Assembly (NCBI RefSeq): GCF_044647545.1
Contig: NZ_CP172818.1
Length of the DNA stretch: 64,000 bases
Direction: 5' to 3' (one strand)
Origin: Escherichia coli
GTDB taxonomy: Bacteria > Pseudomonadota > Gammaproteobacteria > Enterobacterales > Enterobacteriaceae
In this document: positions 2,314 through 19,394 of the stretch, one piece after another
Layout of the letters: each line of letters starts with the position of its first letter
How positions within the stretch are numbered: position 1 is the first letter of the stretch
The notes under the pieces: model-generated
Databases searched by the model: none
What the model was told of the DNA's origin: nothing
What the model saw: only the letters and a program-made list of their open reading frames with translations
Translations under genes and position numbers: made by a program

Positions 2314-3084
2314 CTAATTCACAAATCTGCGCGCGATTGCAGGATGTTCTTGTATATCGCCCAGCCAGATTGCCTCTACGTTGTGTTGTTGCAGCGGTTG
2401 AAGGAGCTCGCTTTGCGCAATCGCATTCTCACATTGAGAAAAACGGTTAATGAACCAGACTCGCCGACAACCTTGCGGTACGTTTTTAAACGCCCCCTGA
2501 GGGTGGCGAACCAGCGCAACGAGATCGCTCAGTTGCAAGGGTGCATCAGGTGTTAACCCAGTAATATCAGCAAACTGCGACCAGCGATGGACATTTTCTG
2601 TGCTCACTTTCGCACCCAAAATATGTCCTCCCATCACAGCAATCACGCAGCAACTGCTTTTAGGTATGCAAGGTTCGTGCTCATCAGGCGCTTTTAACGG
2701 CATTCCACGCGAGCCATCTGCTTCAATGAGAATTACGTCACACTCTGGTCGTTGTACCAGTGCATCAATCGCTTCTGGCGTAAATCCCTGCACTTTTCCC
2801 TGATTCGCTTTCCAGCTGTGAAAACAAAATGAAATGGGGGATATAAAAGACGCATGAGGAAGCATGGCGGGATCACGACAGAAAACCACGGGCCAGTGAG
2901 ATGTTGGCATAAACATATGTGTCGTCGTAGTGATTAATACACGCCTGCCGCTCGCCTGGAACAGTTCTGCCAGCCAAAAAAGCAAGCTGGTTTTCCCCCC
3001 AGCACCAACAACAGAAATCACAGTGGGACGTTTCTGCGCGCCTAAATCAATGAATAATGCCGATGGGTCAATTATACTTTTCAC
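2314..3084 (-). CDS. yqeC: selenium-dependent molybdenum hydroxylase system protein YqeC
   Basis: 256-aa ORF with P-loop-like GAGGKTS motif; length and context match YqeC. Confidence 0.9.
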   Translation of the reverse strand: MKSIIDPSALFIDLGAQKRPTVISVVGAGGKTSLLFWLAELFQASGRRVLITTTTHMFMPTSHWPVVFCRDPAMLPHASFISPISFCFHSWKANQGKVQGFTPEAIDALVQRPECDVILIEADGSRGMPLKAPDEHEPCIPKSSCCVIAVMGGHILGAKVSTENVHRWSQFADITGLTPDAPLQLSDLVALVRHPQGAFKNVPQGCRRVWFINRFSQCENAIAQSELLQPLQQHNVEAIWLGDIQEHPAIARRFVN

Positions 3085-3766: not shown

Positions 3767-3990
3767 AAAACGTAGTTAAACGATTGCGTTCAAATATTTA
3801 ACCCCTCCTGTACTCTTTATCATAATGATAAGGAATCACTGATTTTGAGAAAAGAGAAAAAGTGATAAATGGGCTGGCAATAATAATTTTCAGGAGTGAT
3901 TTTAATTCTCATTTGGCACCTGTGAGTTCATTCACAAAAAGCCATTAAGTTTCGAGCCGCCTCACATTTTTTTATATTTCCCGCCAAACC

Positions 3991-4006
3991 TGGCAAGAGT
4001 GGTGCG
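3991..4006 (+). promoter_or_regulatory. candidate sigma-54 (-24/-12) promoter element upstream of ygfK
   Basis: TGGCA at 3991-3995 with TGC at 4003-4005, giving GG and GC at consensus spacing; about 80 bp upstream of the ygfK start; -12 region is imperfect. Confidence 0.25.
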
Positions 4007-4087
4007 ATTGTTGCTCTATCCCCCTAAACCACCGGATTTCTCAACACCGGTCACTCAATGATATCTGTATAAGCTAAGGAGAGGGTT

Positions 4088-7000
4088 ATGGGGGATATTA
4101 TGCGTCCCATTCCGTTTGAGGAACTTTTGACGCGCATATTTGATGAATACCAACAACAACGCTCAATCTTTGGTATTCCCGAGCAACAGTTTTACTCACC
4201 CGTAAAAGGTAAAACTGTTAGCGTCTTCGGTGAAACCTGTGCCACTCCCGTCGGCCCTGCCGCTGGTCCGCACACGCAGCTCGCGCAAAATATTGTCACT
4301 TCCTGGCTGACTGGCGGACGCTTCATCGAACTAAAAACCGTCCAAATTCTTGACCGCCTGGAGCTGGAAAAGCCCTGTATCGATGCCGAAGACGAGTGCT
4401 TTAACACCGAATGGTCTACCGAATTTACCCTGCTTAAAGCCTGGGATGAATACCTCAAAGCCTGGTTTGCCCTGCACCTTCTCGAAGCGATGTTCCAGCC
4501 TTCTGATTCCGGTAAATCGTTCATCTTTAATATGAGCGTCGGTTACAACCTCGAAGGTATTAAGCAACCGCCGATGCAACAGTTCATCGACAATATGATG
4601 GACGCATCTGACCATCCGAAATTCGCTCAATATCGCGATGCACTTAATAAGCTACTCCAGGATGAGGCATTTTTAGCCCGCCACGGATTGCAGGAAAAAC
4701 GCGAAAGCTTGCAAGCCTTACCCGCTCGCATCCCCACCAGCATGGTACAAGGTGTTACCCTCTCCACCATGCACGGCTGTCCTCCGCATGAAATCGAAGC
4801 CATTTGTCGCTACATGCTGGAAGAAAAAGGACTCAACACCTTTGTGAAACTTAACCCGACCTTACTGGGGTATGCGCGTGTTCGTGAGATCCTCGATGTC
4901 TGCGGTTTCGGTTACATAGGCTTAAAAGAAGAGTCATTTGATCACGACCTCAAGCTGACGCAAGCGCTGGAAATGCTGGAACGCCTGATGGTACTGGCAA
5001 AAGAAAAATCACTCGGCTTTGGCGTAAAACTGACTAACACTCTCGGCACCATCAACAATAAAGGCGCACTGCCTGGTGAAGAGATGTATATGTCAGGCCG
5101 TGCGCTGTTCCCGCTCTCCATCAATGTTGCAGCAGTTCTCTCTCGCGCCTTTGACGGCAAACTGCCCATTTCTTATTCCGGTGGTGCCAGTCAGCTGACT
5201 ATCCGCGATATTTTTGATACTGGTATTCGCCCTATTACTATGGCAACCGACCTGCTGAAACCTGGCGGCTATCTGCGCTTAAGTGCCTGCATGCGCGAGC
5301 TGGAAGGCTCCGACGCCTGGGGGCTTGACCATGTTGACGTCGAACGACTGAACAAACTGGCAGCAGACGCGTTAACCATGGAATACACTCAGAAACACTG
5401 GAAGCCAGAAGAGCGTATTGAAGTGGCAGAAGACCTGCCGCTGACCGACTGCTACGTTGCACCGTGCGTTACTGCTTGCGCCATTAAACAGGATATTCCG
5501 GAATACATCCGTCTGCTTGGCGAACACCGCTATGCCGACGCACTGGAACTCATCTACCAACGCAACGCCCTGCCCGCCATTACCGGTCATATTTGCGATC
5601 ACCAGTGCCAATACAACTGTACCCGCCTGGATTACGACAGTGCGCTGAATATCCGCGAACTGAAAAAAGTCGCGCTGGAAAAAGGTTGGAATGAATATAA
5701 GCAACGCTGGCACAAACCAGCCGGTTCTGGTTCACGCCATCCGGTTGCCGTGATTGGTGCAGGTCCGGCGGGTCTGGCAGCAGGTTACTTCCTTGCCAGA
5801 GCGGGCCATCCGGTTACGCTGTTTGAACGCGAAGCCAATGCGGGCGGCGTGGTGAAAAATATCATTCCTCAGTTCCGTATTCCTGCAGAGTTAATTCAGC
5901 ACGATATCGATTTTGTTGCCGCTCACGGCGTGAAATTTGAGTATGGCTGCTCACCCGATCTGACCGTTGAACAGTTAAAAAATCAGGGCTTCCACTATGT
6001 TCTGATTGCCACCGGCACTGATAAAAATAGCGGTGTGAAACTGGCGGGCGACAACCAAAATGTCTGGAAATCACTCCCCTTCCTGCGTGAATACAACAAG
6101 GGCACAGCGCTCAAGCTGGGCAAACATGTGGTCGTTGTCGGGGCGGGTAACACCGCAATGGACTGCGCTCGTGCGGCGTTACGCGTTCCAGGCGTAGAAA
6201 AAGCAACGGTCGTTTACCGTCGTTCACTGCAAGAGATGCCAGCATGGCGCGAAGAGTATGAAGAAGCGTTGCACGACGGCGTGGAGTTCCGTTTTCTGAA
6301 TAATCCGGAACGTTTCGATGCTGATGGCACCTTAACCTTGCGCGTTATGTCGCTTGGCGAACCTGATGAGAAAGGTCGTCGCCGTCCGGTTGAAACCAAC
6401 GAAACAGTAACGCTGCATGTAGACAGCCTGATCACCGCCATTGGTGAACAGCAGGATACTGAAGCCCTGAATGCAATGGGCGTGCCGCTGGACAAAAACG
6501 GCTGGCCAGACGTCGACCATAATGGCGAAACGCGTCTGACTGACGTCTTTATGATCGGCGACGTACAGCGCGGACCATCCTCCATTGTCGCTGCTGTCGG
6601 AACCGCGCGTCGGGCGACCGATGCAATCCTGAGTAGGGAAAATATCCGTTCCCACCAGAACGATAAATACTGGAACAACGTCAATCCGGCGGAAATCTAT
6701 CAACGTAAAGGCGATATCTCTATCACTCTGGTGAACAGTGACGATCGTGACGCGTTTGTCGCCCAGGAAGCCGCACGCTGCCTTGAATGTAACTACGTTT
6801 GCAGCAAGTGTGTGGATGTCTGCCCGAACCGCGCCAACGTCTCCATTGCGGTTCCTGGCTTCCAGAACCGTTTCCAGACGCTGCATCTCGATGCCTACTG
6901 CAACGAATGCGGCAACTGCGCCCAATTCTGCCCGTGGAACGGTAAACCGTACAAAGACAAAATCACCGTCTTCAGCCTGTCGCAAGACTTTGATAACAGC

Positions 7001-7188: not shown

Positions 7189-8517
7189 ATGTTGATTCTG
7201 AAGAATGTCACCGCAGTGCAGTTACACCCGGCGAAAGTGCAGGAAGGCGTTGATATCGCCATCGAAAATGATGTGATTGTCGCTATCGGCGATGCCCTGA
7301 CGCAACGCTACCCCGATGCCAGCTACAAAGAGATGCATGGTCGGATTGTGATGCCGGGAATTGTCTGCTCGCATAACCATTTTTACTCGGGACTTTCCCG
7401 CGGAATTATGGCAAATATCGCCCCCTGCCCGGATTTCATCTCAACGCTGAAAAATCTCTGGTGGCGGCTCGATCGCGCCCTTGATGAAGAGTCGCTCTAT
7501 TACAGCGGACTGATTTGTTCCCTGGAAGCGATTAAGAGCGGATGTACATCGGTTATCGATCACCATGCCTCTCCAGCCTATATCGGCGGGTCACTCTCCA
7601 CATTGCGCGACGCATTTTTAAAAGTTGGCCTGCGCGCGATGACCTGTTTTGAAACTACTGACCGTAACAGCGGCATCAAAGAGTTGCAGGAAGGTGTAGA
7701 AGAAAACATCCGCTTCGCCCGTCAGATTGATGAGGCGAAGAAAGCAGCAACCGAGCCGTATCTGGTGGAAGCACATATCGGCGCTCACGCGCCGTTTACC
7801 GTGCCGGATGCCGGTCTGGAGATGCTGCGTGAAGCCGTGAAAACCACAGGTCGTGGTTTGCATATTCACGCTGCGGAAGACCTTTACGACGTTTCCTACA
7901 GTCACCACTGGTACGGCAAAGACCTACTGGCACGACTGACGCAATTCGATCTCATCGACAGCAAAACGCTGGTCGCTCATGGGCTGTACTTGTCGAAAGA
8001 TGACATCACCCTACTCAATCAGCGCGATGCGTTCCTGGTGCATAACGCCCGTTCAAACATGAACAACCATGTCGGCTACAACCATCACCTTAGCGACATC
8101 CGCAATCTGGCGTTGGGAACGGACGGCATTGGTTCGGACATGTTTGAAGAGATGAAATTTGCCTTCTTTAAACATCGCGATGCGGGTGGCCCGCTGTGGC
8201 CTGACAGTTTTGCCAAAGCACTGGCTAACGGCAACGAACTGATGAGCCGCAACTTTGGCGCGAAATTTGGGCTTCTGGAAGCCGGTTACAAAGCCGATTT
8301 AACCATTTGCGATTACAACTCGCCGACGCCGCTGCTGGCAGACAATATCGCCGGGCATATCGCTTTCGGTATGGGCTCAGGCAGCGTTCACAGCGTGATG
8401 GTCAATGGTGTGATGGTCTATGAAGACCGTCAGTTTAACTTCGATTGCGATTCCATTTATGCGCAAGCCAGAAAAGCCGCTGCCAGTATGTGGCGTCGGA
8501 TGGATGCGCTGGCATAA
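7189..8517 (+). CDS. ssnA: putative aminohydrolase / chlorohydrolase SsnA
   Basis: 442-aa ORF, amidohydrolase-like HxH metal motif (CSHNHFY); starts 3 bp after ygfK stop. Confidence 0.9.
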   Translation: MLILKNVTAVQLHPAKVQEGVDIAIENDVIVAIGDALTQRYPDASYKEMHGRIVMPGIVCSHNHFYSGLSRGIMANIAPCPDFISTLKNLWWRLDRALDEESLYYSGLICSLEAIKSGCTSVIDHHASPAYIGGSLSTLRDAFLKVGLRAMTCFETTDRNSGIKELQEGVEENIRFARQIDEAKKAATEPYLVEAHIGAHAPFTVPDAGLEMLREAVKTTGRGLHIHAAEDLYDVSYSHHWYGKDLLARLTQFDLIDSKTLVAHGLYLSKDDITLLNQRDAFLVHNARSNMNNHVGYNHHLSDIRNLALGTDGIGSDMFEEMKFAFFKHRDAGGPLWPDSFAKALANGNELMSRNFGAKFGLLEAGYKADLTICDYNSPTPLLADNIAGHIAFGMGSGSVHSVMVNGVMVYEDRQFNFDCDSIYAQARKAAASMWRRMDALA

Positions 8518-17043: not shown

Positions 17044-18959
17044 GATGCCTTCGTATCAAACAGAGTTAACATATCGCGCGCCGCCTGCCTTCCTGCGGCC
17101 ATTGCAGTGACAACCAGATCCGCGCCATGAACAGCATCACCACCAGCAAAGACTTTTTTCAGATGCGTCTGGGTAGGTAAATACCCGACGTCACCGGTTT
17201 GAATCAGGCCCCATTTATCGAGTTTAATTCCGCTGCCCTGCAACCACGGCATGGCATGCGCCTGGAAACCAAAGGCCATAATGAGAACATCGGCGGGCAA
17301 TTCAAACTCTGAACCCGCTACCGGACGAGGACGACGGCGACCATCCGGCCCCGGCTCACCCATGGCGGTACGAATCAGGCCCACCGCAGTTAAACGCCCA
17401 TCTTCGTCACAAGCGATATATTGCGGCTGAACATTGAATTGAAACTCGACACCTTCCTCGCGCGCATTGACCACCTCTTTGCGCGAGCCCGGCATACTGA
17501 CTTCATCACGACGATACGCGCAGGTCACGCTGGCGGCATTGAGGCGGATGGAAGTCCGCAAACAATCCATGGTCGTATCGCCACCGCCCAATACCACGAC
17601 TCGCTTACCTTCCACATCCGTCAGCGGATACTCTTCAGACTCCGGCAATCCCATGAGCTGGCGGGTATGGGCCGTCAGGAACGGTAGAGCCTGAATGACA
17701 CCGGGCACATCTTCATGCGGCAGATCTGCTCGCATCATCCCGTAAGTCCCCACGCCGATGAAAACTGCATCATATTCAGAAGTTAAATCGCTAAAGGTAA
17801 TATCGCGGCCAATTTCACAGTTAAGATGAAAGTCGATTCCCATTGCGGTGAATATCTCTCGCCGCTGGCTTAAGACTGTTTTATCGAGTTTGAAAGGAGG
17901 AATGCCAAAAGTCAGCATACCGCCAATTTCTGGATGACGATCAAAGACATCAACCTGAACTCCCGCGCGCACCAGGATATCAGCACACCCTAATCCTGCA
18001 GGCCCAGCGCCAATCACCGCCACTTTTTCGCTACGGGGAACCACCATGCTGACATCGGGACGCCAGCCCATCGCCAACGCAGTATCGGTGATGTAGCGTT
18101 CCAGATTCCCGATAGAGACTGCGCCAGAGTGATCTTTCAAAGTACATGCGCCTTCACAAAGACGGTCCTGTGGGCAAACTCTGCCGCAGATTTCGGGTAA
18201 GGAACTGGTCTGGTGGCAAAGTTCTGCCGCTTCAATAATCTTTCCTTCCTGTACCAGACGGATGTAATCCGGAATAGCGTTATGCAGCGGGCAATGCCAG
18301 TTGCAGTTAGCTTTTTCGGCACAATAAACACAGCGGTCACTCTCATAAGTCGCTTGTTGTGGATCCAGCCCGCAATAGATTTCGCCAAAGTGGGTTTTCC
18401 GTTCACTCGCTGAAATTTTATCTGCGCCTTTACGCGAGTTAATGGGAAGCAACGCTGCACTGCGAGATGGCTGAGCGTCTGATGACGCTTTTCCTGCTGC
18501 CGTTTTGCGCTGGCGGGCCACCTTTATCTGCTGCAACCCTTTATCGTCCATCAGCCGTAACGCCTGTGTTGGACAGACTTCAATACAGGCTTGCGTGCCG
18601 GAACTGCGCTGGTTACAAAGGTCGCATTTCTGCGCAATCGTATCGACCATCTCAACGACGCCAAAGGGGCAAGCGATTGCGCATCTTTTACAACCAATAC
18701 ATTTTTGCTCGTCCAGTTGTACGCTATCGGGCTGGAAAGTCAGAGCATTAACCGGACAAGCCGTAACGCAAGGGGCATTGTTGCAGTGATGGCAGGCCAC
18801 CGGATTCGCAGCCTGGCCTTTCCCTACAACGTGGATACGTGGTCGAAAGTCACTGTGACTCAGCGGCCAGTTTTCTTGATTATGTGCCATCGCACAGGCA
18901 ATTTCACAAGCATGACAGCCTATACATTCCGCAGCTTCAGCAGCGATAAACTTATTCAT
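17040..18959 (-). CDS. ygfT: Fe-S / FAD-NAD(P)-binding oxidoreductase (GltD-like) YgfT
   Basis: 639-aa product from the MNKFIAAE start; ferredoxin-like cysteine clusters plus GAGPAG motif. Confidence 0.85.
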
Positions 18960-19310
18960 TTGCATCCCTTTCATTTAATGAGTTATGTCTTCTCAAATTT
19001 CGCGATGCAATAAATGGGCATATATTAGGTAGCATGACCGATTTAATTATAATTTTGCGACTGAGTTCAAATTATTGCCCCTCAATCTGTGCCGCTTTCA
19101 TTATTTCAACATTGCCGAACAAAAGAGAGCTAACCAGATAAAAACGATTAAATACGAGAGTGCGACATGCCAGAATGATTAATGAAATATCAATATGAGA
19201 AAATTACAGATAATTCCATTGTCAGGTTCTCTTCTCATTTTCGTGTTTTAACCACGATTATGTGATTGCCTCCGCAATTCCTGTCTCTAACTCCCCTTCC
19301 TCGCAAAAAC

Positions 19311-19326
19311 TGGCACTCCACGAGCA
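19311..19326 (+). promoter_or_regulatory. candidate sigma-54 (-24/-12) promoter upstream of uacT
   Basis: TGGCAC at 19311-19316 and GCA at 19324-19326 with consensus GG-N10-GC spacing, about 70 bp upstream of the uacT ATG. Confidence 0.3.
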
Positions 19327-19394
19327 TGTGTTTAGACAGTTTCATGAACGTAAACGGTTGCTTTTTACTCTGGCGAGCGAAAGGAGAAACACTG

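Follow-up and report, generated by a model that had tools for sequence, protein, structure and literature searches.

A candidate sigma-54 promoter with a conserved non-canonical -12 flank upstream of the urate transporter gene uacT of Escherichia coli

Is the urate transporter gene uacT of Escherichia coli read from a sigma-54 promoter of its own? UacT (YgfU), a urate/H+ symporter, brings in the urate that gut Enterobacteriaceae degrade by the anaerobic uricolytic pathway. This pathway has been connected with host urate homeostasis and with engineered gout probiotics, and its regulation is almost uncharacterised. We analysed 64,000 nucleotides of an E. coli chromosome (the window; contig NZ_CP172818.1, assembly GCF_044647545.1), which opens inside yqeA/arcC and holds the distal half of the anaerobic purine/urate-degradation cluster (yqeBC, mocA, ygfK-ssnA-ygfM-xdhD, xanQ, guaD, ghxQ, ygfST and uacT). 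In K-12 the cluster includes ygeV, the gene of its sigma-54-type activator, some 6 kb further upstream; as the original prediction supposed, ygeV is outside the window. That prediction placed a sigma-54 promoter before uacT, and the candidate is supported in silico by its conservation, by an upstream architecture shared with other promoters of the cluster and by the listing of uacT in the YgeV iModulon. We put at roughly 0.75 the probability that the element is the core of a uacT promoter dependent on YgeV and sigma-54, with a conserved non-canonical -12 flank; three alternatives, weighed below, together take up the remainder. The uacT promoter would probably be an unusually weak sigma-54 promoter, joining the four mapped in the cluster at xdhA, ygeW, ygfK and ygfT.

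Register and conservation of the element

The element, CTGGCACTCCACGAGCA (19310-19326, plus strand), was read directly from the sequence and is identical in K-12 MG1655. It lies in the 435-bp intergenic spacer between the divergent genes ygfT (minus strand, ATG at 18959, annotated as a formate-dependent uric acid utilisation protein) and uacT (plus strand, 19395-20833), the gene that the candidate promoter serves; gene annotation was taken from a 100%-identical strain. TGGCAC-N7-GCA is present as claimed, with TGGCAC at 19311-19316 and GCA at 19324-19326, and the GG at 19312-19313 and GC at 19324-19325 stand 10 nt apart, the canonical sigma-54 register, on the strand of uacT and upstream of the gene. 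The last base of the motif is 69 nt from the ATG at 19395, in agreement with the 'about 70 bp' first given. Its -24 half, including the upstream AAAAC, is a full consensus match, and AAAACTGGCAC fits the extended consensus; the extended sigma-54 consensus that AAAAC fits is reportedly that of Barrios et al. 1999. Taking the start as the motif centre plus 19, the convention of Bonocora et al. 2015, we predict a transcription start at 19337 (plus strand) and a 58-nt leader ahead of the ATG.

Conservation was assessed in 11 motif-anchored uacT upstream regions from at least eight genera (Escherichia, Citrobacter, Pseudocitrobacter, Serratia oryzae, Raoultella, Kluyvera, Pluralibacter and a metagenome contig). 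In all 11, CTGGCA and GCAT stand unchanged at the fixed sigma-54 spacing, whereas the 8 bases between them and the flanks vary; the spacers seen were TCCAC, CCCAC, TGTCT, TTTCT, TCCCT, TGCCT, CACCT and CGGAT. Across the same 11 sequences the DNA between the motif and a CRP-like box upstream of it (described below) is only 41% identical. An alignment of the ygfT-uacT spacer from six taxa, with a mean identity of 57%, gave as its best-conserved 10-column block AAAaCTGGCA (19306-19315; 9 of 10 columns invariant, permutation P of about 5e-5), followed by 8 columns with no invariant position and then the invariant GCAT at 19324-19327; the extended conserved block, AAAACTGGCA...GCATG, spans 19306-19328. 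The second-best block of the spacer is TTGCAT, the -12 element of the ygfT site verified by chromatin immunoprecipitation sequencing (ChIP-seq). Conservation at the information-rich sigma-54 positions, in two parts and at the right spacing, is as a functional -24/-12 element would predict.

The two bases directly 5' of GC are GA, AA or GC in all 11 sequences and never include T, so that this non-canonical -12 flank looks maintained rather than decaying. The AAGCA found at an intragenic sigma-54 site in paaY also occurs in the uacT elements of Serratia, Kluyvera, Raoultella and Pluralibacter.

TGGCA-N8-GCA occurred on the plus strand upstream of uacT in seven of the first eight close orthologs, the exception being Morganella, which carries a canonical site, TTGGTCTGTATTTTGCT (13.7 bits), in the equivalent region. 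As an empirical null, the same pattern was found upstream in only 1 of 72 more distant uacT homolog loci. That sole match, in a Janthinobacterium metagenome-assembled genome (L065 3780-3795), is the canonical-looking TGGCACGAAGCGTGCA, which may reflect an independent, nitrogen-type sigma-54 control of a urate/xanthine permease. Within E. coli, about 1 kb around the element was matched in 5,330 of 5,426 complete genomes.

Gene order around uacT was also compared. The gene is divergent from ygfT in E. coli, Citrobacter sp. R56, C. freundii M-21, Serratia oryzae and Kluyvera, and, judged by the Pfam content of called genes, in Pseudocitrobacter, Raoultella and the metagenome contig. In Erwinia sp. 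CGal63 (L086 1-4446) and a Logan metagenome contig (L087 1-4437) it directly follows ygfK-ssnA, with gaps of 19 and 132 nt. The ssnA-uacT gaps of these two arrays hold no sigma-54-like element, and uacT would there be read from the ygfK sigma-54 promoter.

Three further features of the spacer and leader were recorded. An Rfam scan of both returned only a chance hit (20 bits against a gathering score of 298) and no known riboswitch or small RNA. A direct repeat, CCACGATTATGTGATT at 19252-19267 and CCACGAGCATGTGTTT at 19318-19333, 66 bp apart with the shared core CCACGAnnATGTGnTT at 19252 and 19318, overlaps the CRP-like box and the -12 region and is confined to the Escherichia lineage. An in-frame ATG at 19344-19346, 17 codons 5' of the annotated uacT start, is ATT in K-12; it is probably irrelevant because it has no Shine-Dalgarno sequence.

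Upstream boxes shared with the verified promoters

Bonocora 2015 reported sigma-54 sites in the cluster at xdhA, ygeW, ygfK and ygfT (OS29-OS32), plus one inside yqeC. On the ygfT side of the spacer, the verified site is TATGCCCATTTATTGCA (19006-19022, minus strand; OS32, with a ChIP-seq fold-above-threshold score, FAT, of 3), with a predicted start at 18995, 36 nt before the ATG. The verified ygfK site, GTGGTGCGATTGTTGCT, lies at 3999-4015 (plus strand) at the end of a promoter region beginning at 3818. An alternative ygfK core, TGGCAAGAGTGGTGC (Zhao 2010), reaches 8.0 bits where the Bonocora core has 14.5, and conservation of this alternative does not extend to Pluralibacter; the Bonocora register was therefore kept for the positional rule that follows.

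We defined a CRP-like box as a match of at least 8 of 10 to TGTGA-N6-TCACA and gave positions relative to predicted starts. At the ChIP-verified promoters the box is centred at -67.5 (xdhA), -68.5 (ygfT), -67.5 and -97.5 (ygfK; 3951-3966, 8/10, and 3921-3936, 10/10) and -77.5 (ygeW). The rule of a box near -68 was set on these promoters and then applied to the uacT candidate, which has such a box, TGTGATTGCCTCCGCA (19261-19276; 8/10, with TGTGA perfect and CCGCA as right half), centred at -68.5. Shuffles put the chance of a box at -67.5 or -68.5 at about 0.001 for each promoter. The same spacing recurs in 9 of 10 uacT orthologs scanned and in the ygfK promoter of Pluralibacter, where the ygfK layout is repeated; the exception among the 10 is Morganella, with no CRP-like box found upstream of uacT. 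The metagenome contig, beyond those 10, has only a 7/10 box, whose position was read by eye. The ygfT box, TGCGACTGAGTTCAAA (19056-19071; 8/10, centre -68.5), mirrors that of uacT and forms a conserved block, reaching 9/10 in the C. freundii and Serratia orthologs.

When the ygfT-uacT spacer was compared with the K-12 DNA upstream of xdhA, ygeW and ygfK, a second shared element emerged besides the box near -68. The palindrome TATCAATATGAGA (19188-19200), of the family TMTCA-N3-TGAKA, has its centre at -143 relative to the start of uacT and at -199 relative to that of ygfT, and the spacer is nearly mirror-symmetric in the order ygfT core, CRP-like box, central palindrome, CRP-like box, uacT core. 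The palindrome recurs as an identical 14-mer in the ygeV-ygeW spacer and as TATCATAATGATA in the ygfK region (window 3818-3830), and the xdhA region has the near-matches TATCACATTGATT and ACTCATATTGATA. The window has three copies of TMTCA-N3-TGAKA, all in its cluster part, for an expectation of 0.20 (none of 100 shuffles gave three), and a 19-kb K-12 cluster segment has four for an expectation of 0.05. It is kept upstream of ortholog uacT genes, mostly 140-143 bp before the predicted start, as the perfect palindrome TCTCATTATGAGA in Serratia and Raoultella and TCTCATTGTGAGA in Kluyvera. We propose TMTCA-N3-TGAKA as a candidate upstream activator site of YgeV.

Other readers of the palindrome were considered and set aside. 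The only IHF-like core in the spacer, WATCAA, lies inside the E. coli palindrome and is lost in Serratia and Kluyvera, where TCTCA-N3-TGAGA is perfect. The half-sites of the FNR consensus, TTGAT-N4-ATCAA, have the opposite arrangement. A Fur-like sequence is seen only in the ygfK copy, not in the uacT, ygeW and xdhA copies, so Fur was rejected as a general reader.

A perfect box of the same family, TCTCACATTGAGA, lies at 2427-2439 inside yqeC, about 160 nt before the yqeB ATG. This box is 230 nt downstream of an intragenic sigma-54 site verified by ChIP (2667-2683, minus strand) that points towards yqeB, and could be an activator site downstream of its promoter.

The uacT candidate thus resembles the xdhA, ygeW, ygfK and ygfT promoters in cluster, iModulon, GG/GC register and CRP-like box near -68 (-77.5 at ygeW). 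All five have a TMTCA-N3-TGAKA box 130-330 bp upstream and all are imperfect consensus matches, with defects that differ: the -12 flank at uacT (GA for TT), the -24 element at ygfT, and GT for GC at ygeW. At ygfT the -12 TTGCAT is invariant across genera and the -24 element is degenerate (TATGCC, ATCGCC or CGTGTC for TGGCAC), giving 6.2-6.6 bits on the weight matrix introduced below. OS29-OS32 were all detected by sigma-54 ChIP-seq (FAT 3-26), the two weakest, ygeW and ygfT, reaching only FAT 3, whereas the uacT element was not.

Published expression data place uacT with the same genes. Table 1 of PMC12133099 lists it in the 'YgeV imodulon' group with ygfT, ygfK, xdhA and others, and the YgeV iModulon paper (PMC10602906) gives sigma-54 promoters at xdhA and ygeW and lower ygfT expression in a ygeV mutant. 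From this literature, uacT is co-expressed with the YgeV iModulon (xdhABC, ygeWXY-hyuA, ygfK-ssnA-ygfM-xdhD and ygfT). Urate degradation has also been reported to be glucose-repressed, with a CRP site noted in the ygeV-ygeW spacer; CRP binding data for the ygfT-uacT spacer were not found in published sources. In the literature searched, no paper tied uacT/ygfU to sigma-54 or defined a YgeV site, and an older prediction may exist.

Contrary evidence and alternative explanations

Several observations weigh against a sigma-54 promoter at uacT, beginning with the strength of the match taken alone. The original prediction had proposed scoring with a sigma-54 weight matrix, and here it fared poorly: on a matrix built from the 135 sigma-54 ChIP-seq sites of Bonocora et al. 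2015, the element scores 5.2 bits, outside the typical range of bound sites and below 99.3% of the 135 true sites (leave-one-out range 5.2-20.3, median 13.9; 0.7% as low). It ranks 186th of 127,968 window positions, with 185 scoring higher. K-12 sigma-54 ChIP-seq, at both high and low stringency (Bonocora 2015 Tables 1-2 and S2), has no peak towards uacT, and the same experiment did detect the ygfT site 304 bp away in a strain with an identical uacT element. Genomic SELEX (gSELEX, in vitro binding-site selection) with RpoN lists the ygeV/ygeW spacer and not the ygfT/uacT spacer, the gene list of a sigma-54 overexpression microarray lacks uacT/ygfU, and the sigma-factor network supplements (Cho 2014) lack ygfU. 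No mapped uacT transcription start was found, the Cappable-seq supplement having no entry near the predicted start. Finally, the box patterns described above were found post hoc.

Some of these points have limits of their own. The low score was not taken as a refutation because the ChIP-verified ygfT site scores similarly. The whole deficit comes from the GA at matrix positions 13-14, 5' of GC, where T occupies 91 and 127 of the 135 sites; TT in place of GA would give 16.1 bits. Only one of the 135 sites, the intragenic paaY site TTGGCATGGAAAAAGCA (Bonocora IS16, FAT 5), has A directly 5' of GC, and because it is bound in vivo, A at this position is compatible with sigma-54 binding; it shares this A with the uacT element and differs in being intragenic, with no known transcript or activator. 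Each published sigma-54 occupancy data set was obtained under one condition, and such maps are known to overlook weak sites. The absence from Cappable-seq tells nothing, since expression of uacT in standard media is very low; start-site data for uacT, or data on its dependence on rpoN or ygeV, were found in none of the sources, the Reg-Seq and PRECISE-1K supplements included.

We use neither the matrix score nor the count of the bare pattern as support; the window holds four copies of TGGCAC-N7-GCA for an expectation of 1.05 (1 of 100 shuffles gave four), which is not significant alone. Support above chance comes from conservation and context, not from the motif match itself. The matrix also matched two intragenic sites outside the published ChIP lists, CTGGCACGACTGACGCA at 7927-7943 (plus strand) in ssnA with 13.1 bits and GCGGCACGCCCATTGCA at 6472-6488 (minus strand) in ygfK with 13.2 bits.

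Among the alternatives, the one that survives best, though we consider it unlikely, is an unrecognised sigma-70 promoter of uacT activated by CRP from the TGTGA box in class I geometry, with the resemblance to TGGCA/GCA coincidental or overlapping. For possible starts at 19330-19340, the conserved CRP-like box would be some 61-72 bp upstream, the pathway is glucose-repressed, and the poor sigma-54 score and missing ChIP and gSELEX signals fit this explanation. Yet a scan of 18900-19500 found no -35/-10 pair, that is, no sigma-70-like promoter scoring 9/12, and likewise no terminators. No -10-like hexamer is conserved 3' of GCAT across genera, where CTGGCA and GCAT are themselves invariant at sigma-54 spacing, and the CRP-like box occupies the same position at three ChIP-verified sigma-54 promoters.

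Less probable again is weak binding of the sigma-54 holoenzyme at a non-productive site or relic, with uacT expressed otherwise or hardly at all. Deep conservation and two phased upstream boxes argue instead for functional selection, and uacT co-varies with the YgeV iModulon and is intact in K-12 and most orthologs compared. This has to be set against the facts that most of the more than 135 E. coli sigma-54 sites have no demonstrated transcription, that uacT is a pseudogene in this strain and that one isolate carries an IS1 between the upstream palindrome and the promoter.

Least probable of the three is that CTGGCA-N8-GCAT is the site of another DNA-binding protein, a repressor or second activator of ygfT/uacT: the consistent lack of T 5' of GC in the 11 orthologs is atypical for sigma-54 and could be a different recognition code, and no ChIP signal is reported, but the invariant bases are those most informative in the sigma-54 matrix at the exact spacing, AAAAC agrees with the extended consensus, dyad symmetry is absent from the block and the equivalent region of Morganella has a fully canonical sigma-54 site.

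Proposed mechanism, related systems and state of the locus

If the element is a YgeV/sigma-54-dependent promoter, sigma-54 RNA polymerase would recognise CTGGCAC-N5-GAGCA and start near 19337. With a consensus -24 half and a -12 half that keeps only GCAT, the closed complex would probably be weak or short-lived. An enhancer-binding protein, most likely YgeV, would act from the palindrome about 120 bp upstream, probably activating the divergent ygfT promoter as well. A protein on the TGTGA-N6-CCGCA box at -68.5, most likely cAMP-CRP, would bend the DNA or help recruitment, and a CRP-type box would couple uacT expression to carbon status.

At sigma-54 promoters, a non-consensus -12 region reduces occupancy and can partly relieve the block that prevents initiation without an activator. 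An unstable closed complex, as the weak -12 flank predicts, would explain why ChIP and gSELEX gave no signal. For a transporter of the pathway's own substrate, we speculate, a low basal level would be useful.

A broader possibility, to which we give tentative credence well short of even, is that the sigma-54 promoters of the cluster share an undescribed design, with a YgeV box, a CRP-type box near -68 (or one to three helical turns further) and deliberately sub-consensus cores, and that, the non-T bases 5' of GC at uacT being themselves conserved, polymerase occupancy there depends on help from CRP or YgeV and is not constitutive. Conditional occupancy would explain why ChIP-seq missed the site and, if true, would run counter to the common view that sigma-54 promoters are occupied whatever the conditions.

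Known systems offer partial parallels to the uacT candidate. Klebsiella pneumoniae nifH and Pseudomonas Pu are weak sigma-54 promoters with a poor -12 flank that need a DNA-bending protein, IHF, to be occupied efficiently. They resemble uacT in a good -24 element and non-T-rich bases 5' of GC, for which low closed-complex stability and reliance on an architectural protein between enhancer and promoter would be expected; they use IHF, whereas the conserved box intervening at uacT looks CRP-type. The prpBCDE operon of E. coli and Salmonella depends on sigma-54 and PrpR and requires cAMP-CRP. It is likewise a catabolic sigma-54 promoter tied by CRP to carbon status, a tie that at uacT is suggested by sequence and position, and unlike uacT its core at prpB is ChIP-positive (OS01, FAT 17). 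The arrangement of ygfT and uacT recalls zraP/zraSR (OS38 and OS39), in which divergent sigma-54 promoters flank a short spacer with the activator site or sites between them, here a candidate site. The zraP and zraS promoters are strong consensus matches, and their regulator ZraR and its sites are experimentally defined. Both are ChIP-bound, whereas of the ygfT/uacT pair only ygfT is, and the activator site there is a predicted one.

Control of uacT by YgeV and sigma-54, if true, would complete the promoter map of the cluster and give a concrete candidate for the YgeV operator. The CRP-type box, which keeps a fixed position at four of the five promoters and lies a helical turn farther out at ygeW, offers a candidate route of glucose repression. 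The case also suggests that a non-canonical -12 flank can hide a conserved, probably functional sigma-54 promoter from ChIP-seq and from matrix scans alike. Of greater interest, as by-products of the analysis, are the candidate YgeV box and the CRP-like box that holds its place throughout the regulon.

In this lineage the candidate promoter serves a uacT pseudogene. Alignment to K-12 revealed a 10-bp deletion between 20482 and 20483, removing nucleotides 1089-1098 of the K-12 coding sequence (CGGCGCTGGT), which shifts the frame and leaves a 364-residue product; the RefSeq record of the identical strain, from which the annotation was taken, also marks the gene 'frameshifted'. Inside uacT lies a published PhoB ChIP-chip site, TCGTCACATTATTGCAAT, at +234.5 from the ATG (K-12 U00096.2 coordinate 3029561.5), unrelated to the promoter. 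The insertion in the isolate NZ_OZ501598.1 is an IS1A of 768 bp with a 9-bp duplication, AACCACGAT, at window positions 19250-19258, exactly separating the palindrome from the uacT CRP-like box.

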